Below, piece by piece: positions 5,340 through 64,000 of a DNA stretch of 64,000 nucleotides. Positions within the stretch are counted from its first letter, which is position 1. Every line of letters begins with the position of its first letter. The translations under genes were made by a program, and so were the position numbers. Source of the DNA: an uncultured virus (IMG/VR IMGVR_UViG_3300034116_001553) (Duplodnaviria > Heunggongvirae > Uroviricota > Caudoviricetes); IMG/VR virus record IMGVR_UViG_3300034116_001553. One strand, given 5' to 3'. Under the pieces are notes generated by a model. That model saw only the letters and a list, made by a program, of their open reading frames with translations, was not told the origin of the DNA and did not search any database.

Positions 5340-5554
5340 GCCTGGACTCTGACCGCGTCATCAAGCTTGTTGACCGGATGGAAAAAGAGTGTGATCAAAT
5401 ACGTGAAGAGTCCATAAAGTTTGCCTGGTACATGCGCGGCGGCCTGTCCTACGAGGATGCCATGTCGTTGGCCCCAAACGAAAGAAAAATTATCAATAAT
5501 TTGATTAAAGATAATTTAGACACTACTAAAAAATCTGGATTACCTTTCTTCTAA
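5336..5554 (+). CDS. Small baseplate hub assembly protein, gp51-like (TTG start, or expressed by frameshift)
   Basis: 72 aa directly after the gp26-like gene. WYMRGGLSYEDAMSLAPNERKII resembles the small helical protein that follows gp26 in T4-like phages. Confidence 0.55.
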   Translation: MSLDSDRVIKLVDRMEKECDQIREESIKFAWYMRGGLSYEDAMSLAPNERKIINNLIKDNLDTTKKSGLPFF

Positions 5555-8700: not shown

Positions 8701-8701
8701 A

Positions 8702-9037
8702 ATGGACTTATACACAATTTGGGCAAACAAAGAAGGCGATATCTCAGACTTAGACTGGGTCAACGGAATGAAAAGTTTCTTTGATCATTTGATCTCCGAA
8801 GACAAGATGGTATCGTACAGAATCACAAGATGTAAAATGGGATTCCGTAGTATTGCCGACATGCCAGAGTGGATGATACTCATGGAGTTTAGAGACATGG
8901 GTCAGATGGACAATGCGTTCAAACGAGTAGCACCACTCAAAGGAGAACTCGAAGAGAAACACAAGTCATTCAATCAGTTTGTTGCTGGTGATATTCAACA
9001 TGCATTGTTTAGAGATTGGCCAGATACTAACTTATAA
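8702..9037 (+). CDS. Small hypothetical protein (dimeric alpha-beta barrel / DUF6614-like)
   Basis: 111 aa. YTIWAN...SYRITRCKMGF...EWMILMEF; last gene of the plus-strand run. Confidence 0.5.
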   Translation: MDLYTIWANKEGDISDLDWVNGMKSFFDHLISEDKMVSYRITRCKMGFRSIADMPEWMILMEFRDMGQMDNAFKRVAPLKGELEEKHKSFNQFVAGDIQHALFRDWPDTNL

Positions 9038-46626: not shown

Positions 46627-46654
46627 AAAGGGCCTCTGGGCCCTTTACTTTTTT
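46627..46654 (+). terminator. Intrinsic terminator ending the structural operon
   Basis: AAAGGGCC-tctg-GGCCCTTT hairpin followed by ACTTTTTT. Confidence 0.75.
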
Positions 46655-46672
46655 CAATATACCCTGTATAAT
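46644..46672 (+). promoter_or_regulatory. Sigma70-type promoter for the modification-enzyme operon
   Basis: TTTACT-17 nt-TATAAT, with the ATG 7 nt downstream of the -10 box. Confidence 0.6.
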
Positions 46673-46679
46673 TGACTAT

Positions 46680-46988
46680 ATGAATAATGACAACTTGATT
46701 GCACACTCACGTGCCCGTTTTGAACATGCGGCCACAAAACGCATCCTTAAAGAAAAGTACCAGGGCAAAATGATATTTGCTTATAACGGAGGAATGTGGC
46801 AGGCAGGTCCTGAGTTATTGACATTGTTACATGCCTGCTCAGTGGACGATGATATTGTAATTTTAGATTTGTATGGTAATCCTGTAAAAATCAATCCAAC
46901 AGAATTACAATACTTGGCCCTTGGTCGCTGGCAGGAACAAATGAATGCATGGTTACTCGAGTATGAAGAATTAGGCAAAAAAAGATGA
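46680..46988 (+). CDS. Hypothetical protein
   Basis: 102 aa; first gene after the promoter, overlapping the next gene (ATGA). Confidence 0.65.
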   Translation: MNNDNLIAHSRARFEHAATKRILKEKYQGKMIFAYNGGMWQAGPELLTLLHACSVDDDIVILDLYGNPVKINPTELQYLALGRWQEQMNAWLLEYEELGKKR

Positions 46989-47791
46989 CAACTGGTGCGT
47001 TGATCTTTGCATTCAACAACAGCAACATTGATTATCTTGCCCTAGCGGCCTGGTCAGCTGATAATATAAAACGTCACCTGGGTATTCCGGTAGCAGTGGT
47101 CACCAACGTGTCCGATTCGGGTTATCTTAATAAGTTTGATCAAGTGATCACTGCATCAACTGATGCCGGCGGCTATCGTTTCTTTGATGACATTGGTAAG
47201 TCTGTACCGTGGTTTAATTCTAACAGAACCGATGCATATAGTCTAAGTCCCTGGGATAACACATTAGTGCTTGACGCCGATTATGTAGTAGCTAGTAATC
47301 AATTAAAATGTGCATTGAATACAACTCAAAATTTTTTATGTCATCGGTGGGCCTACGACCTCACAGGCACACAAGACTTTGAAGATTTAAATTATTTCGG
47401 TCGACATAAAATGCCCATGTGGTGGGCCACAGTGATGTATTTTAAACGCAGCCAAGAATCACAATTGCTATTTGAGTCAATGACAATGATTAAACAAAAT
47501 TGGCAACATTATAAAAATATCTACGGAACAGGTAGGTCTGTTTATCGTAACGACCATGCACTAAGTATTTCTCTTTGCATGTTAAATGGACACACAACGG
47601 ATCATCCAGCAATTCCCTGGAGTTTGGCCAGTGTAACACCTTCACATAAACTGTCACAAGTTAGTCAAGACTATTATAGAATTGATTTTAATAACAGTGA
47701 AGGAAAACCTCGTTGGGTGGATATTAAAAACTGTGACTTTCACGCCATGGGCAAACAACAACTAGGAGCCATCGTTGCCAATCCTTGCTGA
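46985..47791 (+). CDS. GT-A fold glycosyltransferase-like protein
   Basis: SPWDNTLVLDADY (DxD), WATVMYF, RNDHALS. Confidence 0.6.
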   Translation: MTTGALIFAFNNSNIDYLALAAWSADNIKRHLGIPVAVVTNVSDSGYLNKFDQVITASTDAGGYRFFDDIGKSVPWFNSNRTDAYSLSPWDNTLVLDADYVVASNQLKCALNTTQNFLCHRWAYDLTGTQDFEDLNYFGRHKMPMWWATVMYFKRSQESQLLFESMTMIKQNWQHYKNIYGTGRSVYRNDHALSISLCMLNGHTTDHPAIPWSLASVTPSHKLSQVSQDYYRIDFNNSEGKPRWVDIKNCDFHAMGKQQLGAIVANPC

Positions 47792-48554
47792 ACGTGGTTA
47801 TCTTATTCCGGCAATTGACACTGACTCTGTTGACTACTTGGGTTGTGCTGTACAACTTGCTAGATCTATTCGCCAGTGGCATCCAGATGCCAATATCTCT
47901 GTACTGTCAGTAAAACAATGCAGTGACCCTGTGTTCGATCATGTGATTCCGTTGCCACACGGTGACCTAGGAGGATATGCCAACGACTGGCAAGTATTTG
48001 CCGCTAGTCCTTATAGACAAACTATTAAACTAGAAGCAGACATGATTGCCACAAGTGCTGTGGACCACTGGTGGACATTGTTTGAACACCAAGATGTGGC
48101 AATCAGTCAAGGCTGTAGAGATTTTTACGGACAGATAAGTAAGTCAAGATATTACAGAAAAGTTTTTGATTCTAACAACTTGCCTGATGTTTACAATGCT
48201 ATAACTTACTGGCGTGTGAGTAAAACAGCCAAGGAATTTTTTGATTTAGTAAGGGCAATATTTTCTGACTGGGAGTCCTTTAAAAAATTATTAAAATTCC
48301 CCGACGATATCCCTACAACTGATTTAGTATATGCCATGGCTGCCAAAATAGTCGGCATTGAGAATTGTGTATTACCAACAAATTTTGGTCCTACAATTGT
48401 TCATATGAAGCGTTATATTATACCCACACATACCGGCAATTGGAGCAAAGAACTAGTCTGGGAAAATGCAGACCCTGGATTAAGGATACACACAATTACA
48501 CAAAGTGGATTCTTTCATTATCATATAAAAGATTGGGCCACAGCCAATGAATGA
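47775..48554 (+). CDS. GT-A fold glycosyltransferase-like protein (paralogue of previous)
   Basis: SPYRQTIKLEADM (ExD variant), YNAITYW, TDLVYA, HYH. Confidence 0.55.
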   Translation: MPILAERGYLIPAIDTDSVDYLGCAVQLARSIRQWHPDANISVLSVKQCSDPVFDHVIPLPHGDLGGYANDWQVFAASPYRQTIKLEADMIATSAVDHWWTLFEHQDVAISQGCRDFYGQISKSRYYRKVFDSNNLPDVYNAITYWRVSKTAKEFFDLVRAIFSDWESFKKLLKFPDDIPTTDLVYAMAAKIVGIENCVLPTNFGPTIVHMKRYIIPTHTGNWSKELVWENADPGLRIHTITQSGFFHYHIKDWATANE

Positions 48555-48894
48555 AACTACAGAAAATTTTTGGAAAGCATTCAACGAATGGGATCTACCG
48601 ACACCAAAACCAATATTTTATCGTTTATATCATGATGATGCAGGCTTTCCTTTATTTTATAGCATGGAGGATGTGCCAGGTAATTATATTGAAATCGACA
48701 GAGAAACATTTTCCTTGTTGCCAAGTAATGTTCGAGTAGTCGACAATAAATTAATCTATATAAAACACACTATCACTAATAAATTGGTGCCAGGAGACAC
48801 AGGAATACCCTGTGATCCTAGGGATATCTGTGTTGTTGTAGATAATTCTATACCTAATATAAAATGGAGTTTAAGAACTAATGAAACAAGTTGA
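48547..48894 (+). CDS. Hypothetical protein
   Basis: 115 aa, overlapping both neighbours in the operon. Confidence 0.6.
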   Translation: MNETTENFWKAFNEWDLPTPKPIFYRLYHDDAGFPLFYSMEDVPGNYIEIDRETFSLLPSNVRVVDNKLIYIKHTITNKLVPGDTGIPCDPRDICVVVDNSIPNIKWSLRTNETS

Positions 48895-49807
48895 TATTGC
48901 TGATCTTGATGTGATTTACCTCAGCTATGATGAACCACAGAAAGAAGAATTCTGGGTCAAGATTAAAAACATGGTTCCCTGGGCCAAACGTGTGGATGGT
49001 GTTAAAGGCTCAGATGCCGCACACAAAGCCGCTGGTGATGTCAGCGAAACAGAACGATTTATTTTAATCGACGGCGACAATTTGCCAGATTCGAAATTTT
49101 TTAATCTAACATTAGATTTTAAAGATGATGATAAACACAATTCAGTGTTTCGTTGGAGAGCACGTAATCATATCAACGGATTAATGTATGGTAATGGAGG
49201 ATTAAGTTCTTGGACTCGAGAGTTTGTGTGGAATATGAAAACTCATGAAAACACAGATGGACGAGATGAAAGTCTTGTTGAGTTTTGTTTTGAGCCTAAT
49301 TACTTTGCCATGTATGATTGTTACAGTACTACCTATCCAAACGGAACACCGTTCCAGGCCTGGCGAGCAGGATTTAGAGAAGGTGTCAAGATGTGCCTAG
49401 ACAAAGGTCATAAACCATCAGTGGCTGAATTTAGAGATCGTGTGCATAAACGTAATTTTGATCATCTTACAATTTGGCATAATGTAGGAACTGATGCTGA
49501 AAACGGTGCCTGGGCCATTGCCGGCAGCAGAATGGGCACTTACATGACCATGCTAACCGACTGGGATTATCGGCTAGTTCAAAATTTTGATGCGTTAGCA
49601 ACTTTGTGGGATACTGTCAAAGATCACACTCCAGAAATCGTGTTTGATAGAATTGCTGCCGATCTAAATCAACAACTGGATTTACCTGTCATTGTGTTGG
49701 GTCGAGAAGAAAGTGAATTTTTTAAACATCATTATCTGAGCAACTGGCACAACCGAGGTATAATGACACGCGAACTAGATGTAATAAGGGAACAAGAAGG
49801 ATGGTAA
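48881..49807 (+). CDS. Glycosyltransferase family 2-like protein
   Basis: DVIYLSYDEP, AHKAA, FILIDGDN (DxD), YGNGG, AWRAGFREGVK. Confidence 0.6.
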   Translation: MKQVDIADLDVIYLSYDEPQKEEFWVKIKNMVPWAKRVDGVKGSDAAHKAAGDVSETERFILIDGDNLPDSKFFNLTLDFKDDDKHNSVFRWRARNHINGLMYGNGGLSSWTREFVWNMKTHENTDGRDESLVEFCFEPNYFAMYDCYSTTYPNGTPFQAWRAGFREGVKMCLDKGHKPSVAEFRDRVHKRNFDHLTIWHNVGTDAENGAWAIAGSRMGTYMTMLTDWDYRLVQNFDALATLWDTVKDHTPEIVFDRIAADLNQQLDLPVIVLGREESEFFKHHYLSNWHNRGIMTRELDVIREQEGW

Positions 49808-50373
49808 CACGATTATACCTTGACGGATGTAGTTTGACCTACGGGCAAGGTCTTAAAAGACAAGATTCTTTAGGAAGCCTATTTAATACTCGCGGCGGGT
49901 ATCAAGTAATTGACAACTCAAGGCAAGGTAAAAGTAATATGTCTATTGCATTTGATGCTTATCAAAATTTTCAAAATGCCGATATATTTGTATTAGGTTT
50001 TACATATTCGTCTAGATTTGGATTAAAATATAACGATCAGAATTTAGATTTTTTTACAGGGTTTCACGGTAAAGGACTGGCTCTTGAGCCAGCAACACTT
50101 GATATTGCACACACTGAGATGTACAAATATTTTTATTCTGTTTTTGGTCCTCCGTATAGTGAAAATTTAAGTGACATGTTAATCGACACATCAATTAGTT
50201 TTTTAAATTCTTGTAACAAAAAAGTTCTTGGATTTTCCTGGGAAAACAGAAAAACGGTTCGCCAGTTAGAATATCCCATGATTGGTCCAAATGGTCGACT
50301 TGATGACGGACATCTAAATGTTAAAGGTACCGAGCAACTTTTTGATTTTTTACAAAATATTTTAAATGAATAA
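49801..50373 (+). CDS. SGNH/GDSL hydrolase-like protein
   Basis: Block I DGCSLTYG, block II GKSN, block V DDGHLN. Confidence 0.65.
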   Translation: MVTRLYLDGCSLTYGQGLKRQDSLGSLFNTRGGYQVIDNSRQGKSNMSIAFDAYQNFQNADIFVLGFTYSSRFGLKYNDQNLDFFTGFHGKGLALEPATLDIAHTEMYKYFYSVFGPPYSENLSDMLIDTSISFLNSCNKKVLGFSWENRKTVRQLEYPMIGPNGRLDDGHLNVKGTEQLFDFLQNILNE

Positions 50374-51781
50374 TAAAGTTGACACAAAATTAACAGACTT
50401 TAAATCTGAATTTTTAAGTTCTGCAGAAGATATGAAAACTGTGCTAGGACCTAGCTTGTGTTTGGCCAAGTGGAAACAAGTTAGCCTTCATCTGCCCACC
50501 GGAATGAACAACAGTTGTTATCATCCACCATTGCATAGAATACCCATAGAAGAAATTGGACATAATCCTGGAGCATTACACAATACTCCATATAAAAAAG
50601 AACAGCGTAAAATGATGCTCAACGGCGAGCGACCTTCGGAGTGTAGTTATTGCTGGACCATGGAGGATCTAGGAAAACTAAGTGATAGACACTATCGTAG
50701 CGGTGAACCTTGGGCCGCAATGGATTTTGAACAAATAAAAAACTCAACAGGCAATGAAGATGTTGTGCCTAGTTATGTCGAAGTTAATTTTAATCACGCT
50801 TGTAATCTATCTTGTAGCTATTGCAGTCCACAATTTAGTAGCACCTGGCAAGCAGAAGTACAACGCTCAGGCGGATATCCTACTAGTATTATCCATAATG
50901 ATCCTAGCCACTTCACTGGCCGCAATCGACCTATACCAGCTAGTCACGAGAACCCTTATGTGGAAGCGTTCTGGAAGTGGTGGCCTACATTATATCCTAA
51001 ACTAAAACATTTTCGCATGACTGGTGGCGAGCCTCTAATGGATAAAAATACCTACAAGGTATTTGACTATGTGCTAGCACTACCCAACCCTGAGTTGCAT
51101 TTAAATGTTACCAGTAACTTTAGCGTAGAACCGCAGTTATGGAACAAGTATTTTGATTATGTTAAACAGTTATGTAACACCAACATTGAACATTTTATGC
51201 AGTATGTTAGTTTGGATTCAGGCATACCAGAGCATGCTGAATACATTCGCCATGGCATGGATTTTTATCGTGTGCAAAGCCGTGTAAATCATTTCTTGTT
51301 GGACATTCCTAATCGTAATAGTTTGACATTTATTATTACCATGAACAATCTAAGTGTGTTAGGGTTAAAAACACAATTGGAATGGATATTAGAATTACGA
51401 AAACAACATAGCCATACCTATCAGCGTGTTTGGTTTGATACGCCTCTTCTTAGACAACCAACCTGGCAAAGTCTACAAATACTTCCACCAGCCTATGCAA
51501 GCATACTTGAACGAATTGCTGATTGGATGGAAATTAATTTAGAAACCCCTAGCAACCCATTTCACGGATTTAAAGACTACGAAGTACAACGCCTGCGCAG
51601 AGATATTGCCTGGATGAAAGATGGACAGAAGTTGCAACAAGGTTACGTTAATAAAAATCGTGCTGATTTTTATAGATTTTTTAACGAACACGACTCTCGA
51701 CGAGGAACAGATTTTTTAAAAACATTTCCTGAAATGTCAGATTGGTGGAAAGAATGTGAGTACCATGCTAGACAAACGTAA
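50366..51781 (+). CDS. Radical SAM enzyme with N-terminal Cys-rich auxiliary (SPASM/twitch-like) domain, copy 1
   Basis: CLAKW...SCYH...ECSYCW, then CNLSCSYC and TGGEP. Confidence 0.88.
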   Translation: MNNKVDTKLTDFKSEFLSSAEDMKTVLGPSLCLAKWKQVSLHLPTGMNNSCYHPPLHRIPIEEIGHNPGALHNTPYKKEQRKMMLNGERPSECSYCWTMEDLGKLSDRHYRSGEPWAAMDFEQIKNSTGNEDVVPSYVEVNFNHACNLSCSYCSPQFSSTWQAEVQRSGGYPTSIIHNDPSHFTGRNRPIPASHENPYVEAFWKWWPTLYPKLKHFRMTGGEPLMDKNTYKVFDYVLALPNPELHLNVTSNFSVEPQLWNKYFDYVKQLCNTNIEHFMQYVSLDSGIPEHAEYIRHGMDFYRVQSRVNHFLLDIPNRNSLTFIITMNNLSVLGLKTQLEWILELRKQHSHTYQRVWFDTPLLRQPTWQSLQILPPAYASILERIADWMEINLETPSNPFHGFKDYEVQRLRRDIAWMKDGQKLQQGYVNKNRADFYRFFNEHDSRRGTDFLKTFPEMSDWWKECEYHARQT

Positions 51782-52907
51782 ACTTATTCTAGATACATTT
51801 TGCGAAGTCTACGATCAACTACTACCCTGGGAAGATGAGTCTTTTTATGATTTTAGTAATCACACTATTGTTCCGGGTGCAATTTATATTATAGGTCGAA
51901 CACAATTTAATTTGAATAAAGAGAGAATTCGTGAGTTAGTTGAATCTGACACTATACGTGTTGTATTAAGCAATCCAGCTGAAGGTAGCGAAACGTTAAA
52001 AGCACATTGTGAGAGTGTGCATAACATTGCCGATCTTGTTGTGCAAGGGCGTATTTTATTAATCGGTGGCGGAGACATGGAGCCAGACTGGCCGTGTTTA
52101 GTCTATGATAGTTTCTTGCCCAAGATACATGACTATAAACAAAATCTAATAGAGATTAATCGGTCAGAGGCCTTGTACTCCACGCCCAACAAGCCTTTTA
52201 AATTTTTGTTTTTAAATGGCCGCTTGAGAGGACATAGAAAATTCCTAATAGAAAAACTTGATTTAATGGGACTGTTAGATCAAAGTCTGTGGACTAGTCT
52301 TGAATCAAGAAAAAGTATGTACTCAAATTTATCTGTGCCATTTAATGGGCAGGATCAGATGTTTACTTTGAGAGAACCACACCTGTTGCCATCCAAATAC
52401 GAAGTTGATCGTTATTGTAACAACATTGATCTAGTGCCCAAATTAGGCTTTATTAAACACAATCTGTTTGATCAAGAATGGGGAGAAATCTATCTCAAAG
52501 CAGAACCTTATATTGATACATATTTTAGTCTAGTTTCCGAAACAGTATGTGACTATCCGTATAGTTTTAGAACTGAAAAAATTTGGAAACCTGTGGCTAT
52601 TGGACACCCGTGGATAGCGGCAGCCAATCGAGGATACTATCGAGACATGCGCAATCTAGGATTTCAAACATTTTCACATGTGATTGATGAAAGTTTTGAT
52701 GAAATTGACAATACGCAGGATAGACTCACACGTATTACACAAATAGTTGAAGATTTGTGTAAGCAAGATCTTGATGAATTCCTCAAATCGTGTTATAATG
52801 TATGTAAATACAATCAACAACATCTGCTTGAAATGCGCCAAACTGTGCGTAAAGAATTTCCTAGACGATTCCTGCAATTTATTAAACAAAGTCACTTCGA
52901 TGAATGA
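51765..52907 (+). CDS. Hypothetical protein, possibly GT-B/fucosyltransferase-like C-terminus
   Basis: FLFLNGR.R.HR and FSLVSET...RTEKIWKP...GFQTF..VIDESFD. The TEK motif recalls GT10 enzymes. Start set at the ATG at 51765. Confidence 0.45.
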   Translation: MLDKRKLILDTFCEVYDQLLPWEDESFYDFSNHTIVPGAIYIIGRTQFNLNKERIRELVESDTIRVVLSNPAEGSETLKAHCESVHNIADLVVQGRILLIGGGDMEPDWPCLVYDSFLPKIHDYKQNLIEINRSEALYSTPNKPFKFLFLNGRLRGHRKFLIEKLDLMGLLDQSLWTSLESRKSMYSNLSVPFNGQDQMFTLREPHLLPSKYEVDRYCNNIDLVPKLGFIKHNLFDQEWGEIYLKAEPYIDTYFSLVSETVCDYPYSFRTEKIWKPVAIGHPWIAAANRGYYRDMRNLGFQTFSHVIDESFDEIDNTQDRLTRITQIVEDLCKQDLDEFLKSCYNVCKYNQQHLLEMRQTVRKEFPRRFLQFIKQSHFDE

Positions 52908-54231
52908 TTTAGAATTCCGACAACAAATATTAGATACCAAAAGTTCTAGTTTCTGTGCGGCCAAATGGTACAATGCTACTATATGGCTAGGATCAGGCCA
53001 AACAACTAGCTGTCATCATCCACCGGCACACGCTATTGATGTAGATGATATTAAACGCAACCCATCAGCGTTACATAACACACAGAGAAAAAAAGCCGAT
53101 AGAGAAATGATGCAGAAAGGTGAGCGTCCTAGCGGTTGTGAATACTGCTGGAAAATTGAAGACATTGGCCGAGATGCAATCAGTGACCGTGTATACAAAA
53201 GTAAAATTTACCCTATAGAGGACTTAAATCATGCTTTCCGCACTCCGGCCAGCAATGACATCAATCTTCGAACACTAGAGATTGCGTTTGATCGCACTTG
53301 CCAGTTTGCTTGTAGCTACTGTAATCCTGCTTTTAGTAGTACATGGGTTAAAGATATACGAAACAACGGCGCTTACCAGGGCTTGGTTAGCGATGGCAGG
53401 AATCATTTTACTCATGATCACGCTGCCTCCCAACTTTACAAGTTTGGAGAACAAAATCCTTATGTGGACGCATTCTTTGCTTGGTGGGAAAGCGACCTCC
53501 ACCAAACTCTTCAGGAGCTCAGAATAACCGGTGGTGAGCCATTGATGTCAGGTGAGACCTGGAAACTGATTGACTGGTTTAAAAACAATCCCGGGCGTAG
53601 CCACACACAATTGGCAATTAATTCAAATTTAGGTGCTGAAGTAGACATAGATCGTTTACTAGACAGTATTAAAGGCTTGCAAGTAGAAATATACACAAGC
53701 ATGGAAGCAGTGGGTACACAAGCAGAATACATTCGAGACGGTCTAGACTATCAAGCGTGGTGTGCTAATGTGCTGAAACTATTGGATGCTGGTATAGTGG
53801 TACATTGTATGTGTACTATTAATGCTTTGTGCCTGGATAGCCTTCCTAAACATTTAGACCAACTGATTGAATGGAAAAAAATCTACGGTCGTGACTATAT
53901 TAATTTTACACTGAATATCCTGCGATTCCCCAGTTTCCAAAGTGCATTGGTACTCGGTGAATCTTTAAGAAATCAATACAAACAAGATTTAATTGACTGG
54001 ATGGGTAAACACAAAGGTCACAGCTATTTGCACGAACACGAAATTAATCACACTCAGCGATTAATTGATTATCTAGACGTGGTAAAAACTCCGCACTCGG
54101 ATGCGTTTGACATGCCTAAATTGCTGAATGATTTTTACAAGTTTCATGCACAATATGATCAGCGCCGCGGTAAAGATTTTGCTCAGGCATTTCCTAATCT
54201 TAAAGAATGGTATGACTCAATACAAGTATAA
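52900..54231 (+). CDS. Radical SAM enzyme with N-terminal auxiliary domain, copy 2
   Basis: FCAAKW...SCHH...GCEYCW, CQFACSYC, TGGEP; likely start ATG 52900 (MNDLEF). Confidence 0.88.
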   Translation: MNDLEFRQQILDTKSSSFCAAKWYNATIWLGSGQTTSCHHPPAHAIDVDDIKRNPSALHNTQRKKADREMMQKGERPSGCEYCWKIEDIGRDAISDRVYKSKIYPIEDLNHAFRTPASNDINLRTLEIAFDRTCQFACSYCNPAFSSTWVKDIRNNGAYQGLVSDGRNHFTHDHAASQLYKFGEQNPYVDAFFAWWESDLHQTLQELRITGGEPLMSGETWKLIDWFKNNPGRSHTQLAINSNLGAEVDIDRLLDSIKGLQVEIYTSMEAVGTQAEYIRDGLDYQAWCANVLKLLDAGIVVHCMCTINALCLDSLPKHLDQLIEWKKIYGRDYINFTLNILRFPSFQSALVLGESLRNQYKQDLIDWMGKHKGHSYLHEHEINHTQRLIDYLDVVKTPHSDAFDMPKLLNDFYKFHAQYDQRRGKDFAQAFPNLKEWYDSIQV

Positions 54232-55477: not shown

Positions 55478-56679
55478 AATTACCACAGGATAAATTTTGT
55501 GTACTGCCTTGGATCAGTTTAGAAGCTAGTCCCATCGGGACTGTACGTCCTTGCTGTCTTGCCGAAGATGAAATAATTGACAATGATGGCAATAAATTTG
55601 AATTGACCAAAGCCGACTTCGTTGAAATAAGAAATTCAGATTACATGAAAAATCTTAGACAGCAATTCCTGACAGGACAAAAACCTAATACCTGTAAGAA
55701 GTGTTGGAACGAAGAAGATTCAGGTAGAACAAGTAAACGAATGCACACTATTGATCGATTAAAACATATTGTTGGCAATCAGTCCTGGAGTGAAGATGAA
55801 AAACCAATGATGTTCTTGGATTTAAAACTAGGAAATATCTGTAATCTTAAATGCCGTATATGTGGTTCGTGGTCATCAAGTTCGTATGCAACAGAAGAAA
55901 TGATGGCTGTACCACACCAAGATCGTAAAAAAACATTTGCCTATCAGATGCTACGTGCTGGTAGTTGGCCAAGAGAAAATAAACAATTTTGGCAACAAAT
56001 TGATCAATGCCTATCTGACATACACTATATAGAATTCACCGGTGGCGAACCTTTTATGATCAGCGAACATTTTGATATGTTACAAGGAATTATAGACAGA
56101 GGAATTGCTGGACAAGTAGAGATACATTACAATACAAACGGAACCATAGTTCCTGAACGTGCGCCTGACATTTGGCGACACTTTAAAACAGTTGAAGTTG
56201 CATTTAGCATAGATGACGTAGGACCAAGATTTGAATACCAACGCATGAATGCTAGTTGGAAAGAAGTAAACGAAAACATTAACAAGTTTAAATTGTTACA
56301 ATCTACAATGCCTAACCTACAGTTACAATGTTGTAGTACTGTTAATGTTTTTAATGTGCTGTATCTTGAAGAGCTTGCGGCCTGGCACAAGTTGGCTAGT
56401 TTTGATTTTATCTATTGGAATATGTTGCACGAAGCATATTATTTTAGCATAGGATCATTGCCTGAACTGTCAAAACAATATGTCAAACAAAAATTGGAAA
56501 GTACAGCAACTCTAGGTAATACAAAACAGGAGTTTGAAAAAATTATTCAATTTATGATGCAAGGAACAAGTCTTGATGGTTCTTTACTACGTGAAAAAAT
56601 TAAAGAAATAGATCTACGAAGAAGCCAAGATTTAAATCAACATCATTCAGAGTTGGCTAAAACAATTGCTTATGAATAA
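55474..56679 (+). CDS. Radical SAM enzyme with N-terminal twitch/SPASM-like domain, copy 4
   Basis: FCVLPW...GTVRPCC...TCKKCW, CNLKCRIC, TGGEP. Confidence 0.88.
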   Translation: MKLPQDKFCVLPWISLEASPIGTVRPCCLAEDEIIDNDGNKFELTKADFVEIRNSDYMKNLRQQFLTGQKPNTCKKCWNEEDSGRTSKRMHTIDRLKHIVGNQSWSEDEKPMMFLDLKLGNICNLKCRICGSWSSSSYATEEMMAVPHQDRKKTFAYQMLRAGSWPRENKQFWQQIDQCLSDIHYIEFTGGEPFMISEHFDMLQGIIDRGIAGQVEIHYNTNGTIVPERAPDIWRHFKTVEVAFSIDDVGPRFEYQRMNASWKEVNENINKFKLLQSTMPNLQLQCCSTVNVFNVLYLEELAAWHKLASFDFIYWNMLHEAYYFSIGSLPELSKQYVKQKLESTATLGNTKQEFEKIIQFMMQGTSLDGSLLREKIKEIDLRRSQDLNQHHSELAKTIAYE

Positions 56680-57970
56680 ACCTGAATCTTTGTGTATGGC
56701 ACCCTGGGTGCATACCTATCTAAGTCCTCAAACCGAACGCAGAATGTGTTGTGCTAGCCGCGAACCTGCACAAAATTTTCAACAGTACATTGACACATCA
56801 GCAGGCACAGGAAAATATATTCCACTCACACTAGATCAACACTGGAATAGCGATCATATGAAAAGTGTTAGACAACGTATGATGGCAGGAGAAATTTTGC
56901 CCGAATGTGATGTTTGTAACAGTAAACTGTTAAATACTGATGTCTATCGAACATATTTCTGGCACCTATTCAAACATCGTTATGAAGAGGCCATGGAAAA
57001 AACACAGCCTAACGGATCTACAACTATGAAACCAATAAGTTGGGATTATAGATTTAGCAATCTTTGCAATTTCAAATGTCGCATGTGTGGGGATATGTTG
57101 TCTAGTAGTTGGGAAAGCGAAGAACGTCAACACAATCTTATTGACTATTCGGATCCAAGAAATAACTGGATGAAACCAGCAGTAAGAACAGAAATTAGTA
57201 AATTCCAGGACACGCAAATTGAAAAAGAATTTGCAGAAGCAGTAGAAGAACACAGAGTTGAAGAAGTCTATTGGGTAGGCGGTGAACCTCTAATGTATGA
57301 ACAACATTGGCGGTATATGAAACGTATTATTGAATTAAATGATGGAGGACAATTATATGCCAGGTATAACACCAATCTTAGTCGCGTTGATTTTCGGGGT
57401 ATTAATCTATATCGTGATATTTTATCTAATGTTCGCGATTGGCAAATCTGTGCCAGCCTCGACGGAACAGGAGCCACAGGAGAATACATCCGCACAGGGC
57501 TTGAATATTCCACCTTTCTAAAAAACTTTAAACAGGGAATTGAGATACAAAAACATCGCAGGCAAATGCGAATTGATTTTACTCTCACATTACCTGGACT
57601 ATTTGAAGTTGGTAATATACAGCAGTTATCAAATGAGCTTGGGGTTGATATATTAGCCAAGGTGATTTTTAGTTTTAGCCCGGACATCATTATGAGTCCA
57701 TTGGCATTGCCTCGTGAGTTATTAGACAGCACAGTAGATCGTCTAGTAACTAACTTACCTCCAGGTGCGTTGAAGGATGTGTTACTACAACTAAAATCAC
57801 GCCCAACTTTTGCAGAACAATGGCCCGACACCTGGGAAAAAGGTCTTGCAAGAGGAAAGTTCAGAATGTTACAATTGGAATCTATTAGAAATGATACATT
57901 TGGGCTAGACCAAATACTACAACAGGATAACAAAATATATGGCTGGTGGAAAAATATTAGAACAGATTAA
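56672..57970 (+). CDS. Radical SAM enzyme with N-terminal twitch/SPASM-like domain, copy 5
   Basis: LCMAPW...RMCC...ECDVCN, CNFKCRMC, VGGEP; likely start ATG 56672. Confidence 0.88.
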   Translation: MNKPESLCMAPWVHTYLSPQTERRMCCASREPAQNFQQYIDTSAGTGKYIPLTLDQHWNSDHMKSVRQRMMAGEILPECDVCNSKLLNTDVYRTYFWHLFKHRYEEAMEKTQPNGSTTMKPISWDYRFSNLCNFKCRMCGDMLSSSWESEERQHNLIDYSDPRNNWMKPAVRTEISKFQDTQIEKEFAEAVEEHRVEEVYWVGGEPLMYEQHWRYMKRIIELNDGGQLYARYNTNLSRVDFRGINLYRDILSNVRDWQICASLDGTGATGEYIRTGLEYSTFLKNFKQGIEIQKHRRQMRIDFTLTLPGLFEVGNIQQLSNELGVDILAKVIFSFSPDIIMSPLALPRELLDSTVDRLVTNLPPGALKDVLLQLKSRPTFAEQWPDTWEKGLARGKFRMLQLESIRNDTFGLDQILQQDNKIYGWWKNIRTD

Positions 57971-59027
57971 AATTGAACTTAAAAATAGAAATACAGATAA
58001 TCTTCACTCAGTTTATATTGACGTCTATGATAGTTCATTATCTCGTAAATGGTTAAATGCATTAAACGGTTTGTTAACAAATGACTCTCATTTAGAAAAA
58101 AATTTTTGTTTTTTAGGATTTACTCAAAGTCAGCGCAATGGGTGGTACATTCTTGAACAGGTAAACAAATCAATAAATGCAATTAATCAAGCAAATATTG
58201 GATATACCATTGATGATTATTTTACAATGGAAAACACTATCACTGATGATCCTGTAGGATCAAGAACAGTTGGTAGGAATATGATTCATGAACGCTTGAA
58301 TTGGTTGCATCGTTATTTTGAAGACCTTCAGGGCGTAAGCGGTAGCATGTCGGTTTATTTTAATCACGCCAGTGCTGACATACGCTGGCATATAAGACAA
58401 TTAAATTTACTCTGTCATGAGTTTGAAACATGGGCATTGAGTTATCGTAAAGAAATAGAAGCACCTGAGTGGCAACGACCCAGCCAACTAATGTGTTGGT
58501 TAAATGCGCCAAGATTTACTCTTGACGAAAATGACTATGATTTATTTGGTATTGAAACAATAAACCGCAGTCTTGGAGGAGTGTTTGTTGGAGTTAACAA
58601 GGCAATTGGAAAACATCATTGGGAAGTATTCATGGACGAAGGCCGTGACAGTCGAGTTAGTGAATTAGTCACTACCTCTATGCGCAGTCAGACTGAAGCC
58701 GCTGGAGATTTTGATATTGAGTGGGCAAATAATCCAGGTAATCACAGCTGGCAACAAATTAAACTAGCTGAATTTAAAGAATGGTTAATAGTCAATGGGT
58801 TTGACCCTAATGATAAACTATTAACCATTGGGCATCCTCAAGTGGGACAAGTAGATTTAAAACGTAGTTTTAACACAGAAGATTACCTGACCGTTTGGAA
58901 TCAATTAAATAATAGTCTAGATGTATACAGCGTGAGTACCAGCAGTAGTTGTGCTATATACGACTATCATTGGTCAGACTCAGACTTTATAGACCGTCAG
59001 ATAAACATAATCAATCGAAAGAACTAA
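57939..59027 (+). CDS. Hypothetical protein
   Basis: 362 aa; LNWLHRYFE, LNLLCHEFE and GKHHWEVFMDE His/Glu motifs could bind metal; family not recognised. Confidence 0.65.
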   Translation: MAGGKILEQIKIELKNRNTDNLHSVYIDVYDSSLSRKWLNALNGLLTNDSHLEKNFCFLGFTQSQRNGWYILEQVNKSINAINQANIGYTIDDYFTMENTITDDPVGSRTVGRNMIHERLNWLHRYFEDLQGVSGSMSVYFNHASADIRWHIRQLNLLCHEFETWALSYRKEIEAPEWQRPSQLMCWLNAPRFTLDENDYDLFGIETINRSLGGVFVGVNKAIGKHHWEVFMDEGRDSRVSELVTTSMRSQTEAAGDFDIEWANNPGNHSWQQIKLAEFKEWLIVNGFDPNDKLLTIGHPQVGQVDLKRSFNTEDYLTVWNQLNNSLDVYSVSTSSSCAIYDYHWSDSDFIDRQINIINRKN

Positions 59028-59028
59028 T

Positions 59029-59130
59029 ATGAACTGGTTAAAAAACTTAATCAATAGAATTAAACTTGAAATAAGATATAGAAAAAAACTCAAAGAGTTA
59101 CGTAAACGAGATCCATTTATCTACAAATGA
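59029..59130 (+). CDS. 33-aa basic peptide upstream of carbamoyltransferase (absent from ORF track)
   Basis: MNWLKNLINRIKLEIRYRKKLKELRKRDPFIYK; begins 1 nt after the previous stop and overlaps the next ATG (ATGA). Confidence 0.7.
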   Translation: MNWLKNLINRIKLEIRYRKKLKELRKRDPFIYK

Positions 59131-60623
59131 AAAAATACCTAGGTATAAGTGCTGGTTTTCATGACGCTGCCGTATCGGTAATTGCTAATCAAGGCGATAT
59201 TTTATTTGCCGGCCACGCCGAACGCTACAGTAAAAGCAAGCATGATCCTCATATCAATCAAGACTTGGTAGCAGAGGCATTATCGTATGGCGAGCCAGAC
59301 GTTGTTGCTTTTTACGAAAAACCTTGGCTTAAAAAGCTAAGAAACTTTTACGCAGGACAATATAATGAAGCGTTGGATTTTACCGATATTACTGTTCGTA
59401 AGTATTTGCATAAACATGTACCTGTATCTTTTCATAAAGAGCCATTATTTTTACATGCTGGACATCATTTGTCCCATGCTGCCGCAGGATTCCAAACCAG
59501 TCCCTTTACCAAGGCCACCGTTGTCGTTATAGACGCAATAGGTGAATGGGATACTATTAGTATCTGGGGAGCAATGTACGATTCTACACATCGAGCAACT
59601 TATAAAAAGTTGTGGAGCCAACGGTATCCTCATAGTATAGGGTTGTTTTATAGTGCAATAACTAAACGTATTGGACTACACCCAATGGACGAAGAATACA
59701 TTACCATGGGCATGTCGGGATGGGGGAAATCCTCGTGGTATGAAAAAATGAATCAGGGTCTTATTGAAGATCTTGATACTATCAAGTTTAAAGATAATCT
59801 TCACACTGGATTAGATGCAACTTACTTAGAAGCTGCCACCAATGAAGACATTGCCGCATCAGCACAACAGCTAGTAGAAGAATTAATTGTCAATGTAATG
59901 AAACGTGCCAAGTCTTTAAATTGGAGCGATAATCTTGTATACATGGGAGGCGTGGCATTAAATTGCCTTGCAAATAGACATCTTGGAAACTATTTTAATA
60001 ATATTTGGATTATGCCTAATCCTGGCGACGCAGGCAGCAGTCTTGGCGCTGCCGCTTTGGCATACGGTCACAGAGTTAATTGGACTAGTGCTTTTCTTGG
60101 GCATGACATTCCTGGACCGTATCCAGTTAACAGTATACTTGATGAGCTACTTAAAAATCAAATTGTTGGAGTGGCTAGCGGTAGAGCAGAGTTTGGTCCT
60201 AGAGCACTGGGCAACCGCAGTTTATTGGCCGACCCAAGAGGATCAGAAATAAAGGATCGTGTAAATGAAATCAAACGCAGACAAAAATTCAGACCATTTG
60301 CGCCAGTCATTCTGGAGGAGCATGTTGATATGTATTTTGATATGCCTCGTGGCTTCAGTGACAGTAGGTATATGCAAGTCATCGCTCGTTGCAGGCATCC
60401 TCACATATTTCCTGCTATCGTTCACGTTGATGGCACTAGTCGTGTTCAGACAGTTCCGAATGATGGATCGGGAATTAGACAATTGTTGGCAAAGTGGTAC
60501 GTGATGACTGGTTGCCCAATGCTGTTAAACACCAGCTTAAACATACGTGGAGAGCCCATGGTTAATGATAGAGTCGATGCTGATAGATTTGAAAAATTAT
60601 ATGGAGTAACTGTATGCAGTTAA
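59127..60623 (+). CDS. O-carbamoyltransferase, NodU/CmcH/TobZ family
   Basis: LGISAGFHDAA, ERYS..KHD, HHLSHAA, DAIGE, GGVALNC, GDAG, EFGPRALGNRS, FRPFAP, HVDGTSRVQ, LNTSLN..GEP. Confidence 0.93.
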   Translation: MKKYLGISAGFHDAAVSVIANQGDILFAGHAERYSKSKHDPHINQDLVAEALSYGEPDVVAFYEKPWLKKLRNFYAGQYNEALDFTDITVRKYLHKHVPVSFHKEPLFLHAGHHLSHAAAGFQTSPFTKATVVVIDAIGEWDTISIWGAMYDSTHRATYKKLWSQRYPHSIGLFYSAITKRIGLHPMDEEYITMGMSGWGKSSWYEKMNQGLIEDLDTIKFKDNLHTGLDATYLEAATNEDIAASAQQLVEELIVNVMKRAKSLNWSDNLVYMGGVALNCLANRHLGNYFNNIWIMPNPGDAGSSLGAAALAYGHRVNWTSAFLGHDIPGPYPVNSILDELLKNQIVGVASGRAEFGPRALGNRSLLADPRGSEIKDRVNEIKRRQKFRPFAPVILEEHVDMYFDMPRGFSDSRYMQVIARCRHPHIFPAIVHVDGTSRVQTVPNDGSGIRQLLAKWYVMTGCPMLLNTSLNIRGEPMVNDRVDADRFEKLYGVTVCS

Positions 60624-62104
60624 CAGATATACCTGTTAAATTTAATTTTGCCAAACACATTTTTGGAAAAAAATTAGGAAATAAGATTGCATTAATTGAT
60701 GATACCAGCTCGATTAGTTATGAAATGCTTGAGCATAGATCTCGGGGATTTGCTAAAAGTCTCACAGACATGGGGTTAACAAGAGAAGATCGTGTGTTAA
60801 TATTAATGCCGGACACTATCGAATGCGGCATTGCAATACTAGGCTGTATATTAGGAGGATTTGTTCCGGTTATCGGAAATCCGTGGTCGCCTAAAAAAAC
60901 TATTTGTCACTTTATTGAATCCAGCGCCGCAAAAGTTATTATTTTTGCAAATAATAGAACAACACAAAATCAATCCATTGACAGTTACCTTGCTGAAACT
61001 ACACACAAGCCCAAGCATGTGTTATCTATTGAACAACTAAATATATTGAGTACTCCATCAAGTTTTGATCCCCCAACAACTCTAAGAGACGGCGAAGCAT
61101 TTTGGTTGTTTACCTCGGGCAGTACAGGAGAATCTAAATCAGTTGTACATTCTCATAGATCAATGATTGGTGTAGGGTTAGGCTACGGGATCGATGTAGG
61201 TTATAAGTCCGACGATATTGTTTTTGCCACATCAAAATTGTTTTTTAGTTGGGGAATAAGTAGTGCATTTATATCTCCATTGACTGTGGGAGCCACAACA
61301 ATATTGCATGGTAAATTACATACTCCTAGTACTGCGGCAAGGATATTTAAAAAACACAAACCCACGTTATTTGGATCAGTTCCGTCTTTTTATGTTGGAT
61401 TGTTAAATGAAAATTTACCAATTAACTATGGGTCTTTAAGATTGTGCGTAAGTGCTGGTGAGGCAATAACATCTACCATGCAACAACGATGGCAGGAGTT
61501 AACAAAATTACCTATCGTTGACGGGTACGGTAGTACCGAATTACTAGCACCGGTTATTGTGTCAGGAAAATTATTACCAGGATTTTCAGGAATGGTAAAA
61601 GATGCCAATGATTGTGTTGTACAAAATCAAGTGGGAGAATTGTATATTGATGGTCCGTCGATGGCTCTTAGATATCAAAATGAAACCAAAAAGTCCCAGG
61701 AAACTTTTATAGGTAAATGGTGTAAAACAGGAGACAAATTTATACAACAAGGTGATACATATCAGTTTGTTGGGCGTTCTAAAGATATGCTAAAAGTGAA
61801 TGCCAACTGGGTCAGCCCAGTAGAAATAGAAAATTTATTAATATCGCACGAATTGGTATTTGAAGCTGGTGTGTCGGGTATTGAGAACAGTGATGGGTTA
61901 ACAGAAATCGTTGCATACATTGTACTAGCACCCGATGTAGAAATCCCAGAAAATTTTGATCACCAATTAAAATCGTTGATAAAACACAAATTGGATTATT
62001 TTAAGTGCCCTAGGTACATTCGTGTAACCAAGGAATTACCCAAAAATACCAATGGAAAAATACAAAGGTACTTGCTAAATGAAACATATGAACAATCAAA
62101 ATAA
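60614..62104 (+). CDS. Acyl/aryl-CoA ligase (benzoate-CoA ligase-like ANL enzyme)
   Basis: WLFTSGSTG, SKLFFSWG, SAGEA, DGYGSTE, TGD, GRSKDMLKV..NWVSPVEIE, LPKNTNGKIQR. Confidence 0.88.
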   Translation: MQLTDIPVKFNFAKHIFGKKLGNKIALIDDTSSISYEMLEHRSRGFAKSLTDMGLTREDRVLILMPDTIECGIAILGCILGGFVPVIGNPWSPKKTICHFIESSAAKVIIFANNRTTQNQSIDSYLAETTHKPKHVLSIEQLNILSTPSSFDPPTTLRDGEAFWLFTSGSTGESKSVVHSHRSMIGVGLGYGIDVGYKSDDIVFATSKLFFSWGISSAFISPLTVGATTILHGKLHTPSTAARIFKKHKPTLFGSVPSFYVGLLNENLPINYGSLRLCVSAGEAITSTMQQRWQELTKLPIVDGYGSTELLAPVIVSGKLLPGFSGMVKDANDCVVQNQVGELYIDGPSMALRYQNETKKSQETFIGKWCKTGDKFIQQGDTYQFVGRSKDMLKVNANWVSPVEIENLLISHELVFEAGVSGIENSDGLTEIVAYIVLAPDVEIPENFDHQLKSLIKHKLDYFKCPRYIRVTKELPKNTNGKIQRYLLNETYEQSK

Positions 62105-63338
62105 ATCAATTTTAGTAGTTGGGGGCGGCACAGCTGGCTGGATGGCCGCTGGATATTATAGTAAAAAAGGATACCCAGTTACGCTGATAGAAAGTCCCGA
62201 CGTTAATGTAGTAGGGGTAGGAGAAAGCACGTTACCTGCTATGAACTGGTTTGCAAATTTTTTAGGCATGGAAGAAGAAGAATGGATGCCACTTAGTGAT
62301 TCAGTTTTTAAAATGGCAATCAAGCACGAAGGCTGGAACAATCGAGACTCAAACTGGTGGCATTGGTTTATCTATGATCGTACAACACATGAAGAACAAT
62401 TTGAGCACTTAAAAAATAACACATTACCCCCTCGTGAAAAATTAGAATACGGATATCATGTTGATGCATTTAAATTTGGCGACACTATTGCTAAAACAAC
62501 TGCACTCAAGCACGGATGTAAACACATTGTTGGTCACGTGACTGATGTTATTGGAAACCCTGAATCAGGGATAGAAAAATTAATAACCAGCACTGGCCTT
62601 GAATTGTCTGCTGATTTATACATTGATTGTACTGGTTGGCGCAAATTATTAGCAAGCAAAGTTGGCATGGAATATCATCGTTACGAACATTTGCTCAACG
62701 ATCGTGCAGTTACAACAGCACAGCCAAGTCTACCTACTATTAATAGATATACAACAACAATTGCTAAATCAGCTGGATGGATTTGGGAAATACCGTTGAC
62801 CACAAGACGAGGCTGTGGTTATGTTTATTCAAGTAAACACATATCTGATGAGCAGGCCGTTGAAGAATATTGTGAACATTATCCAGGAACCGATAAGAGC
62901 AAAATTAATTTTTTAAAATTTGTACCTGAAGTTTGTTTAAATCCTATAAATCAAAATGTTATCTGTGTTGGACTTGCTGGCGGATTTATTGAACCATTAG
63001 AAGCTACTAGTATATTTTTAACTCAGTATATGATTGTACAATCAGAAATGTTTGCATCAGGGGAACGTCCTGCTGGGGCTATTAACAGATCCCAGAAAAA
63101 AGTATTTGATCACACAGCAAAATTTGTTCTTTGTCATTATACATTGTCGGGCAGAACCGACACTGAGTACTGGAGATATTACAATGATCTTGAGAAAAAG
63201 ATCAACACGCTGAACTATGTCAAACAAAAAGCGGCAGAAAAAGATGTCGAACAATGGAATTCAACCAATTTATTTTTCCCATGCAGTTGGTGGGCAATGT
63301 TAAATGGTTATGAACTGATTCCTGCAGAACAAACATGA
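62088..63338 (+). CDS. Flavin-dependent halogenase, tryptophan halogenase (PrnA-like) family, copy 1
   Basis: VGGGTAGW, VGVGEST, FK (catalytic Lys position), WIWEIP (WxWxIP), GFIEPLEATSI. Confidence 0.88.
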   Translation: MNNQNKSILVVGGGTAGWMAAGYYSKKGYPVTLIESPDVNVVGVGESTLPAMNWFANFLGMEEEEWMPLSDSVFKMAIKHEGWNNRDSNWWHWFIYDRTTHEEQFEHLKNNTLPPREKLEYGYHVDAFKFGDTIAKTTALKHGCKHIVGHVTDVIGNPESGIEKLITSTGLELSADLYIDCTGWRKLLASKVGMEYHRYEHLLNDRAVTTAQPSLPTINRYTTTIAKSAGWIWEIPLTTRRGCGYVYSSKHISDEQAVEEYCEHYPGTDKSKINFLKFVPEVCLNPINQNVICVGLAGGFIEPLEATSIFLTQYMIVQSEMFASGERPAGAINRSQKKVFDHTAKFVLCHYTLSGRTDTEYWRYYNDLEKKINTLNYVKQKAAEKDVEQWNSTNLFFPCSWWAMLNGYELIPAEQT

Positions 63339-64000
63339 ACAATCAAATCAAATCCATTGTGGTTGTAGGCGGTGGTACAGCTGGCTGGATGAGTGCATGC
63401 TATATGGTTAAGCAAGGATTTGATGTAACATTAGTTGAAAGTCCTGATGTTCCTACCATTGGTGTAGGTGAAAGTTGTTTGCCTGCAATCGGTATTTTCT
63501 GTGATTCTCTTGGATTAAAAGAAGAGGAATGGATGCCTGAAGCAAATGCCAGACATAAAATAGGGATCTTCCATTACAATTGGCTTAGAGAAAAAGATAC
63601 TGTATGGAAACACTTCTTCTGCTATGATCGTAATAATTGTAATGGACAATATTATTTAGAGTCGGGAATATTGCCGCCAGTCAAAGAAGGCAAGTATGCT
63701 TATCATATTGATGCAATAGCGTTTGGACAAATGCTAAAGCGCAGAGTCGCTGACCCAGCCGGAGTAAAATATCTACAAGCGCACATTGTTGATATCAAAC
63801 AACACGAAAATGGGTATGTCAGCGGTTTGCTATTAGACAACGGGCAAACATTAAGCGCAGACTTTTATATTGACTGTTCAGGTCCTGCTAGACTTTTTGC
63901 AGATAAAGTTGGAATTAAATTCAGCAAGTATGGAGACATACTCAATGATCGTGCTGTGGTTTGTCCACAACAACTTGATCCAGGCCCACAACCGCAGTAT
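63335..64000 (+). CDS. Flavin-dependent halogenase family, copy 2 (runs off the window end)
   Basis: Manual translation MNNQIKSIVVVGGGTAGWMSAC...IGVGESC...HKIGIFHYNW...AYHIDA...ADFYIDCSG; tandem paralogue of copy 1. Confidence 0.85.
   Translation, partial: MNNQIKSIVVVGGGTAGWMSACYMVKQGFDVTLVESPDVPTIGVGESCLPAIGIFCDSLGLKEEEWMPEANARHKIGIFHYNWLREKDTVWKHFFCYDRNNCNGQYYLESGILPPVKEGKYAYHIDAIAFGQMLKRRVADPAGVKYLQAHIVDIKQHENGYVSGLLLDNGQTLSADFYIDCSGPARLFADKVGIKFSKYGDILNDRAVVCPQQLDPGPQPQY

Follow-up and report, generated by a model that had tools for sequence, protein, structure and literature searches.

A probable ancient glycosylation island of ~340-kb myoviruses, trailed by a distinct and rare ligase and halogenase cassette

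What does a large phage make with a long run of sugar-tailoring genes placed directly behind a fibre gene? The question is raised by a 64,000-nt stretch of the uncultured virus IMGVR_UViG_3300034116_001553 (the window), in which an initial annotation had described more than 17 kb of at least 18 packed genes. The run is indeed there: 18 open reading frames (ORFs), a 33-residue peptide (59029-59130) being counted as the 18th, follow one another on the plus strand, as do all numbered features of the locus below, from 46680 to the equivalent of position 64573. All 17 junctions overlap or lie 1 nt apart, an overlap from which co-transcription is inferred. The operon had also been said to pass the end of the window, which held for a further 573 bp, where the plus-strand run stops; the genes beyond form a related but convergent block on the opposite strand. 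Compared across related phages, the locus is probably an ancient glycosylation island of ~340-kb myoviruses, trailed by a distinct and rare cassette. Its best reading, to which we give a probability of roughly 55%, is that it would build a heavily tailored glycan on virion proteins. Virion glycosylation, favoured from the start, remains the leading reading, with the core kept in order behind the fibre gene and, in a cultured relative, set among tail genes.

The argument starts from gene order. Two sets of viral loci were compared, the best 80 of 196 related loci of the E308 type and the best 80 of 274 with a carbamoyltransferase. The order fib328-A102-B268-C259-D115-E308 is kept in 74 of the 80 E308-type loci. 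This row begins with the fibre-like structural gene fib328 (45621..46607), found in 79 loci, and continues with the small conserved protein A102 (46680..46988; 76 loci), B268 (46985..47791) and C259 (47775..48554), both in all 80, a second small protein, D115 (48547..48894; 77 loci), and E308 (48881..49807), the most conserved gene of the locus. The structural giant upstream is also conserved, at identities down to 24%. Behind the core, an N-twitch radical S-adenosylmethionine (SAM) enzyme occurs in each of the 50 loci having at least 9 kb downstream, 28 of them with extra genes between E308 and R1, the first such enzyme of the window (50366..51781; 75 of 80 loci). The carbamoyltransferase loci contain H362 in 64 cases, R5 in 64, an E308-type paralogue in 60 and an amidinotransferase in 35, and the aryl-CoA ligase and a halogenase in four each, these coming from two near-identical populations. 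In two minimal loci (L164 and L179), no N-twitch enzyme separates the core from the carbamoyltransferase to which it is joined; the tailoring genes are thus optional, whereas the glycosyltransferase (GT) core is not. Three layers can be told apart: a GT core that is fixed, a tailoring row that is semi-fixed, and slots of variable content. Such a core-versus-variable analysis had been suggested beforehand, and the idea of an uncharacterised tailoring locus with co-occurring genes is borne out by it. In L029, L030, L044, L062 and L079, the variable slot behind E308 is taken by an AMP-binding gene that is shorter than the ligase and looks unrelated to it (19-24% identity).

The cultured relative is Ralstonia phage RsoM2USA (MG752970), the only match to E308 or C259 among 50,697 phage records. 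Its genes gp355 to gp348 repeat the fibre gene, A102, B268, C259, an unmatched 184-residue gene, E308, R1 and an E308 paralogue; homologues within gp355-gp347 keep the same order at 26-38% identity (gp355 with fib328, E 1e-11; gp354 with A102, E 3e-15; gp349 with R1, 36% identical), and they adjoin the sheath, the tube and an epimerase. RsoM2USA differs in carrying one radical SAM gene and two TAAATA motifs upstream, and its genes are annotated as hypothetical.

As a candidate glycan acceptor, fib328 stands out by its 31% Ser plus Thr, the highest content among 267 proteins longer than 150 residues. Library scans gave it no family match, and position and composition suggest that it is a fibre. 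Behind it, as first annotated, an intrinsic-terminator-like hairpin (46627..46646), similar to hairpins in most relatives of the clade, ends the structural operon and is overlapped by a sigma70-type promoter (TTTACT-17-TATAAT, 46644-46672; 46644..46679 up to the A102 gene). The A102 start codon follows the end of the -10 box by 7 nt and lacks a Shine-Dalgarno motif; the A102 mRNA is predicted to be leaderless. Promoter-like sites as a class are not in excess in this region (62 against 59.1 +/- 7.9 by chance). Comparison was possible for 75 of the 80 loci, 56 of them distinct: the sigma70-type leaderless layout, again lacking a Shine-Dalgarno motif, occupies the same place in 37 of the 56, a late TAAATA motif in 15 (12 of these with a Shine-Dalgarno motif), both types in three and neither in one. 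The TAAATA motif precedes many structural genes of the contig that holds the window, and late control of this kind fits a role at the assembly stage. On a quick E308 tree, with two long rows (L041, where the wrong paralogue was taken, and RsoM2USA), a single change splits the two promoter types, with a support of 53. Other sigma70-type promoters with a start codon 6-8 nt past the -10 box lie on the contig at window-relative positions -71821 and -28878, so this phage may resort to leaderless genes regularly.

Which of the core proteins would handle sugars? The GT and SGNH calls of the initial annotation are backed by profile and fold comparisons, though none of these proteins matches Pfam or NCBIfam. 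B268 and C259 are paralogues (hhalign 99.5%, E 3.5e-23) of putative GT8/glycogenin-like type, with no Pfam match for either. B268 has invariant D97-x-D99, H253 and K257 (alignment A2) and C259 invariant E87-x-D89 and H210-M-K212 (alignment A3), acidic DxD/ExD and C-terminal His-Lys columns that we take to be GT8 motifs. For E308 and for G383 (51765..52907; one of seven paralogues in the genome), sequence-profile searches of the PDB found no GT, and folds were needed. The E308 model (pLDDT 85) finds the PBCV-1 capsid glycosyltransferase as its top Foldseek match (E 2.7e-4, TM 0.29/0.39), and the top four VIA rows are GT-type (Z 9.0, rmsd 3.2, 139 aligned, residues 3-153). Its N-terminal half, with D64-G-D66 as the DxD, is predicted to have a GT-A-type fold, SpsA-like and suited to binding nucleotide sugars. 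The G383 model (pLDDT 94) points to a GT-B enzyme, with two Rossmann-like domains spanning its whole chain, of a GT family that cannot be chosen: all 50 VIA rows are GTs or GT-B-type chains (Z 12.8, rmsd 4.5, 275 aligned), and Foldseek gives an alpha1,3-fucosyltransferase (TM 0.41/0.44, E 5.5e-3). The operon proteins have no clear membrane segment (hydropathy peaks of at most 2.18, against 2.47-2.77 in two membrane proteins). Of the two small core proteins, A102 belongs to no known family, with at least 480 representatives at E<=0.001 and no consistent Pfam match; a likeness to DUF4376 or a tail-assembly chaperone was dropped, unsupported by Pfam scans of 35 and 76 homologues and by a PF14301 search of four genomes. 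The Atlas neighbours of D115 are unnamed viral clusters, the nearest named one, Caudo_TAP at 0.77, being a lead only.

The nucleotide-sugar genes that had been thought worth seeking elsewhere in the genome do exist, both adjoining the island and further away. The contig holding the window (G000; 175,184 bp, no terminal repeats) has genes for gp23, the portal, the sheath, the terminase and a late sigma factor. Over a 4.2-kb test piece taken from the far end, it shows 100% identity to G001, a genome of 341,990 bp and 95% completeness (99% for another relative, G002) whose island proteins are 99-100% identical to those of G000, and G001 was used as a stand-in for the genome half absent from G000. 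G001 combines a family B polymerase with a separate minimal Pol III alpha piece, an arrangement shared by the group 2.2 jumbo phages (PMC7824862). Past the second halogenase, its convergent block contains an amidinotransferase, two G383 paralogues, an E308 fusion, two DegT aminotransferases, a DesII-like radical SAM protein, an NAD epimerase, a TauE protein and ThyX; three further GT paralogues are among the genes adjoining the operon. The DesII-like protein (in L089) scores 339.7 bits against TIGR04426 over 418 residues (E 3e-101), missing the cut-off of 450 with this by far its best family. DesII deaminates a thymidine diphosphate (TDP)-sugar (PMC11434129), and the gene is the clearest sign that the chemistry of the island is nucleotide-sugar chemistry. 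Elsewhere the genome encodes GDP-mannose dehydratase, mannose-P isomerase, GT17, GT8 and UDP-glucose dehydrogenase. A second glycan cluster (G000:C1:121990-133414; L005) comprises GT17, GT8, GDP-mannose dehydratase, several methyltransferases and a cytidylyltransferase fused to mannose-P isomerase. At L098:12330-17926, FolE, QueD (by Pfam) and a QueE-like gene (by eye) lie amid GT, epimerase and methyltransferase genes; QueC and DpdA gave no match in a general Pfam scan, with no search aimed at them.

Tailoring inside the operon begins with F190 (49801..50373), an SGNH/GDSL-like variable insert found in only seven of 80 loci. Its profile (alignment A10) matches GDSL esterases (E 3e-6), the block-I Ser and C-terminal His are present, with S11 and H171 nearly invariant, and it is a putative O-acyl transferase or esterase. 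The five radical SAM enzymes first counted all exceed the NF033640 (N_Twi_rSAM) cut-off of 170 bits: R1 (317.1), R2 (52897..54231; 300.1, with Cys motifs), R3 (54212..55477; 394.9), R4 (55474..56679; 339.9) and R5 (56672..57970; 284.8). Each has twitch cysteines N-terminal to CxxxCxxC, and their mutual identity of merely 22-31% implies that the array is old. The family model assigns no reaction; eight copies in G001 exceed its cut-off, and the phage copies are set among GTs beside fibre genes. Aminocyclitols are substrates of twitch enzymes such as BtrN. BtrN itself is classed among the twitch enzymes and has an auxiliary cluster (PMC10337720), and 12 radical SAM genes noted in a T4-like genome were interpreted in terms of Fe-S metabolism (PMC5332604). 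IscA-like (L006:17420-17833) and IscU-like (L006:16508-16930) Fe-S assembly genes are present in the same genome as the eight N-twitch enzymes and several other radical SAMs. The cultured Vibrio phages K566 and K567 (OZ196521.1, OZ196593.1) carry distant relatives of R3 (21%).

Next to R5, with which it travels, H362 (57939..59027) belongs to a family of at least 6056 clusters (8000 candidates scored), with a Pfam domain in none of the 120 listed and no assignment from PDB, Pfam or Atlas. The 33-residue basic peptide (59029..59130), with its C-terminal PFIY motif, is coupled to the carbamoyltransferase: the motif occurs in 72 of the 80 carbamoyltransferase loci and, by a stricter test, directly upstream in 55 of 79. 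The NodU/TobZ-type O-carbamoyltransferase itself (59127..60623) has both Pfam domains above cut-off, as expected from the first annotation (PF02543, 125.4 bits; PF16861, 162.9 bits), and matches phrog_1601 (E 1e-94), while the NodU equivalog cut-off is not reached (139 against 1000). Two further amidinotransferase-like genes (phrog_25854) and small conserved neighbours, DUF6614 among them, lie at window positions 5554-9037; a homologue of a 168-residue gene of that region precedes the carbamoyltransferase in G002, with a second copy of the 33-residue peptide.

Taken together, the core order behind the fibre gene, the RsoM2USA core held among sheath and tube genes behind TAAATA motifs, the late motif in 15 of 56 relatives, the four proteins with GT folds or profiles, the nucleotide-sugar genes adjoining the island and the lack of a clear membrane segment in the operon proteins lead to the reading of a virion glycan, to be built in the cytoplasm by a clade-wide locus. 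Enzymes encoded in the island and in the rest of the genome would make unusual nucleoside diphosphate (NDP)-sugars. B268, C259 and E308, aided by A102 and D115, would, during assembly, prime and extend an oligosaccharide carried by fibre or baseplate proteins rich in Ser and Thr, and G383-type GT-B enzymes would lengthen or cap it. The N-twitch enzymes would act on sugar carbons by oxidising, epimerising or deoxygenating them; substituents would come from the carbamoyltransferase and its peptide, from the SGNH protein, and from amidinotransferases and methyltransferases. Gene swaps in the variable slots would then diversify the coat between lineages.

Several observations weigh against this reading. 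The phage is known here from its genes alone, and sampling the best 80 loci overestimates conservation for distant relatives. In the GT assignments, the B268 profile found no GT in the PDB, the C259 profile matches glycogenin weakly (best E 0.0034 over about 100 positions), the E308 match spans half the protein with nucleotidyltransferases scoring nearly equal, and G383 ties structurally with T4 DNA beta-glucosyltransferase (BGT; Z 12.4). Richness in Ser and Thr is common in fibres and proves nothing. In the window's own clade (37 of 56 relatives), a terminator and a sigma70-type leaderless promoter stand between the structural operon and the locus, a layout that speaks for early or middle expression. 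Finally, the RsoM2USA paper names ten virion bands and does not report glycosylation, though it was not looked for (PMC8504454).

Does the end of the operon belong to the same pathway? The AMP-binding ligase and two Trp_halogenase proteins first annotated there do exceed the Pfam cut-offs. The ligase (60614..62104), first gene of the cassette, belongs to the benzoate-CoA ligase group of aryl-CoA ligases; it scores 372.6 bits against TIGR02262, just below the cut-off of 375.25, with the next family at 233. BadA (PDB 4EAT, 6M2O) is its best structural relative (E 1e-85). At the position of BadA His333-Ile334, the phage ligase and its kin have Ala-Pro in 12 of 12 close homologues, compared with a His in 103 of 108 others, and Ser-Trp stands at the Ala-Tyr pocket positions of BadA. 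The H333A/I334A variant of BadA gains about 97 cubic angstroms of pocket volume and takes halogenated heteroaryl acids as substrates (PMC7277991). By analogy, the pocket of the phage ligase may be widened; in contrast to the engineered enzyme, its Ala-Pro occurs naturally and its gene is coupled to a halogenase. The 12 close homologues are 65-96% identical and all others at most 46%. Named members among the more distant relatives are mostly Comamonadaceae, at most a hint of the host, which is probably Gram-negative. A hotdog thioesterase like 1,4-dihydroxy-2-naphthoyl (DHNA)-CoA hydrolase (L007:17536-17988) could act on aryl-CoA; the ORF beside it (G000:C1:173092-173304) may be ribosomal protein S21-like.

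The ligase overlaps HAL1 (62088..63338; 416 residues, PF04820 310 bits), which is followed by HAL2 (63335..64000 and 573 bp beyond the window; 412 residues, 308 bits for the full protein). The two are 44% identical, and both have the GxGxxG motif and the Lys aligned to that of RebH, which we take to be catalytic; the WxWxIP motif is kept in HAL1 and ends in Thr-Gly in HAL2. At about 410 residues they are shorter than full-length Trp halogenases (500-550), and the short group counts about 68 listed clusters of about this length, identity to full-length enzymes dropping to about 33%. Their sequences predict them to be flavin-dependent halogenases of an unnamed short subfamily. The ligase is found in four viral contigs (the two near-identical populations) and in two more metagenome contigs at 69-72%; the metagenome scan returned seven loci, these two, the contig of G002 and four distant enzymes. 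G002 has the ligase with HAL2 and no HAL1, which makes HAL1 an extra copy in the population of the window. On the two additional contigs, L189 and L190, the ligase stands with HAL2 (copies 84-86% identical) in the company of neither GT nor radical SAM genes, on short pieces of 6.3 and 2.6 kb; the gene preceding the pair is, we presume, TilS-like. L200 has HAL2 alone, in another island slot. One continuous pathway running through the halogenases, as the annotation had it, was dropped on these grounds, the ligase and halogenases occurring in 4 of 80 carbamoyltransferase loci and the pair standing apart from sugar genes in L189 and L190. The pair is probably a separate mobile cassette that would make a halogenated aryl-CoA by a carrier-free route. 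That it feeds the glycan is possible but doubtful. The full picture, in which a fibre glycan of deoxy-amino sugars is edited by radical SAM enzymes, carbamoylated, amidinated, acylated and here capped by a haloaroyl group, in a locus that switched once between late and sigma70 leaderless control, is a long shot.

Could the product go somewhere other than the virion? Soluble GTs can use lipid-linked intermediates, and the locus might alter the host O-antigen or capsule from the cytoplasmic side, excluding superinfecting phages or grazers. The sigma70-type promoter of this clade and the varying gene content among relatives agree with such a role, one proposed for P-SSM2-type clusters (PMC7824862). 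We nevertheless consider it unlikely: Pfam scans of 141 and 150 proteins, which left out ORFs under 90-110 residues and some others, found no flippase, Gtr, bactoprenol GT or membrane acyltransferase family, the core is invariant over phages of very different hosts, and lytic RsoM2USA has it amid tail genes behind late motifs. Phage DNA is a quite improbable acceptor. Phage carbamoyltransferases with the same two Pfam domains act on 5-hydroxymethylcytosine (5hmC; PMC8670742), 16 of 80 loci have a ThyA gene close to the carbamoyltransferase, G383 resembles T4 BGT, and FolE and QueD are encoded, so that carbamoyl-5hmC or glycosylated bases come to mind. However, DNA carbamoylation goes with a thymidylate synthase homologue having Asp177, Asn marking unmodified DNA, and GT-flanked carbamoyltransferases occur on unmodified contigs (PMC8670742). 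Here every one of the 18 ThyA motifs found, those of G003 and L200 among them, has Asn at position 177; ThyX is present, and the ThyA family (PF00303) has no member in G001 or G002. In contrast to the 5hmC phages, there is no dCMP hydroxymethylase partner, the neighbours are GTs and restriction-type sites are avoided. In 338,440 bases (G000 plus L093-L101, counted without a modified-phage control), AGCGCT occurs 0 times against 19.9 expected and GTGCAC 7 times against 58.2, and seven of 64 palindromes fall below half of expectation against 16 of 4032 other hexamers, counts with which partial or site-specific modification would stay compatible. A search for TET/JBP was silent for phage and controls alike. 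The carbamoylated 5hmC once proposed is thereby disfavoured by the missing hydroxymethylase, the Asn-type ThyA and the avoided sites. All four R-CGCG-Y hexamers are absent from the same sequences, and hexamer avoidance may be a fingerprint of host restriction systems.

If the whole stretch served one diffusible or tethered small molecule, for instance a carbamoylated, amidinated, haloaroyl aminosugar, then the overlap of carbamoyltransferase, ligase and halogenases in a single run, the adjoining DesII-like, DegT and amidinotransferase genes and the place of HAL2 inside the island in L200 would all be accounted for, and such a product has been proposed for S-SSM6a (PMC7824862). We regard this as distinctly unlikely, given that the cassette is confined to 4 of 80 loci and stands alone in L189 and L190, that no aroyl acyltransferase was identified, and that a carrier protein (PF00550) was found in none of three near-complete genomes, with controls positive in 11 of 14. 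The initial annotation had noted neither a carrier protein nor a nucleotide hydroxymethylase in the window, and across near-complete genomes this still stands; a classic natural-product cluster is disfavoured by the missing carrier protein. Maturation of the 33-residue peptide by the radical SAM array as a ribosomally synthesised peptide that carries post-translational modifications (RiPP) is highly improbable. A short conserved peptide does lie in the run, SkfB is a twitch enzyme and there are peptide-maturase matches, weak and far under their cut-offs. But the peptide tracks the carbamoyltransferase, even in L164 and L179, whose core and carbamoyltransferase have no N-twitch enzyme between them, RsoM2USA has R1 and no carbamoyltransferase among the genes translated, and the N-termini of R1-R5 are occupied by twitch cysteines.

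The virion-glycan reading has precedents. Mycobacteriophage capsids and tail tubes bear glycans (Freeman 2023, cited in PMC12619734), and in PBCV-1 (PDB 2P6W) as in mycobacteriophages, soluble virus-encoded GTs are found near structural genes. The present locus differs in its far richer tailoring set, in belonging to a myovirus of a probably Gram-negative host and in resting on gene content. Closer in content are the P-SSM2/S-SSM6a clusters of cyanophages, jumbo myoviruses with GTs, epimerases, a carbamoyltransferase and a halogenase, whose target is unproven; they are sporadic and use 2-oxoglutarate/iron (2OG-Fe) oxygenases (PMC7824862). What sets the locus described here apart is its invariant GT core linked to a fibre gene, its radical SAM array, and its DesII-like and aryl-CoA ligase genes. 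In a cyanophage, the genes listed include GTs together with an amidinotransferase and a radical SAM (PMC12801897). Moraphages have four core GTs (PMC12619734). In the mainly non-subscription literature searched, no published account of the locus was found, and the supplements of PMC7824862 and PMC8504454 may list its genes. Elsewhere in the genome, 28 tRNA genes and a transfer-messenger RNA lie in the half outside G000 (L099:4874-18737, L100:2944-3365), and the SbcCD genes have two others inserted among them, one for a B12-binding radical SAM and one for an AMP-binding protein of divergent sequence (window 10788-12365 and 14719-16170).

If the virion-glycan reading is true, glycosylation of the virion is a core trait of a large clade of aquatic and soil jumbo phages, with a chemistry far richer than in known phage cases, and it probably affects how hosts are recognised, as well as grazing and stability. 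The function-less NF033640 family would gain a testable substrate class. The cassette offers a directly assayable lead of two enzymes, a seemingly naturally widened aryl-CoA ligase and a halogenase of an unnamed short subfamily, and is possibly a viral source of organohalogens in lakes.

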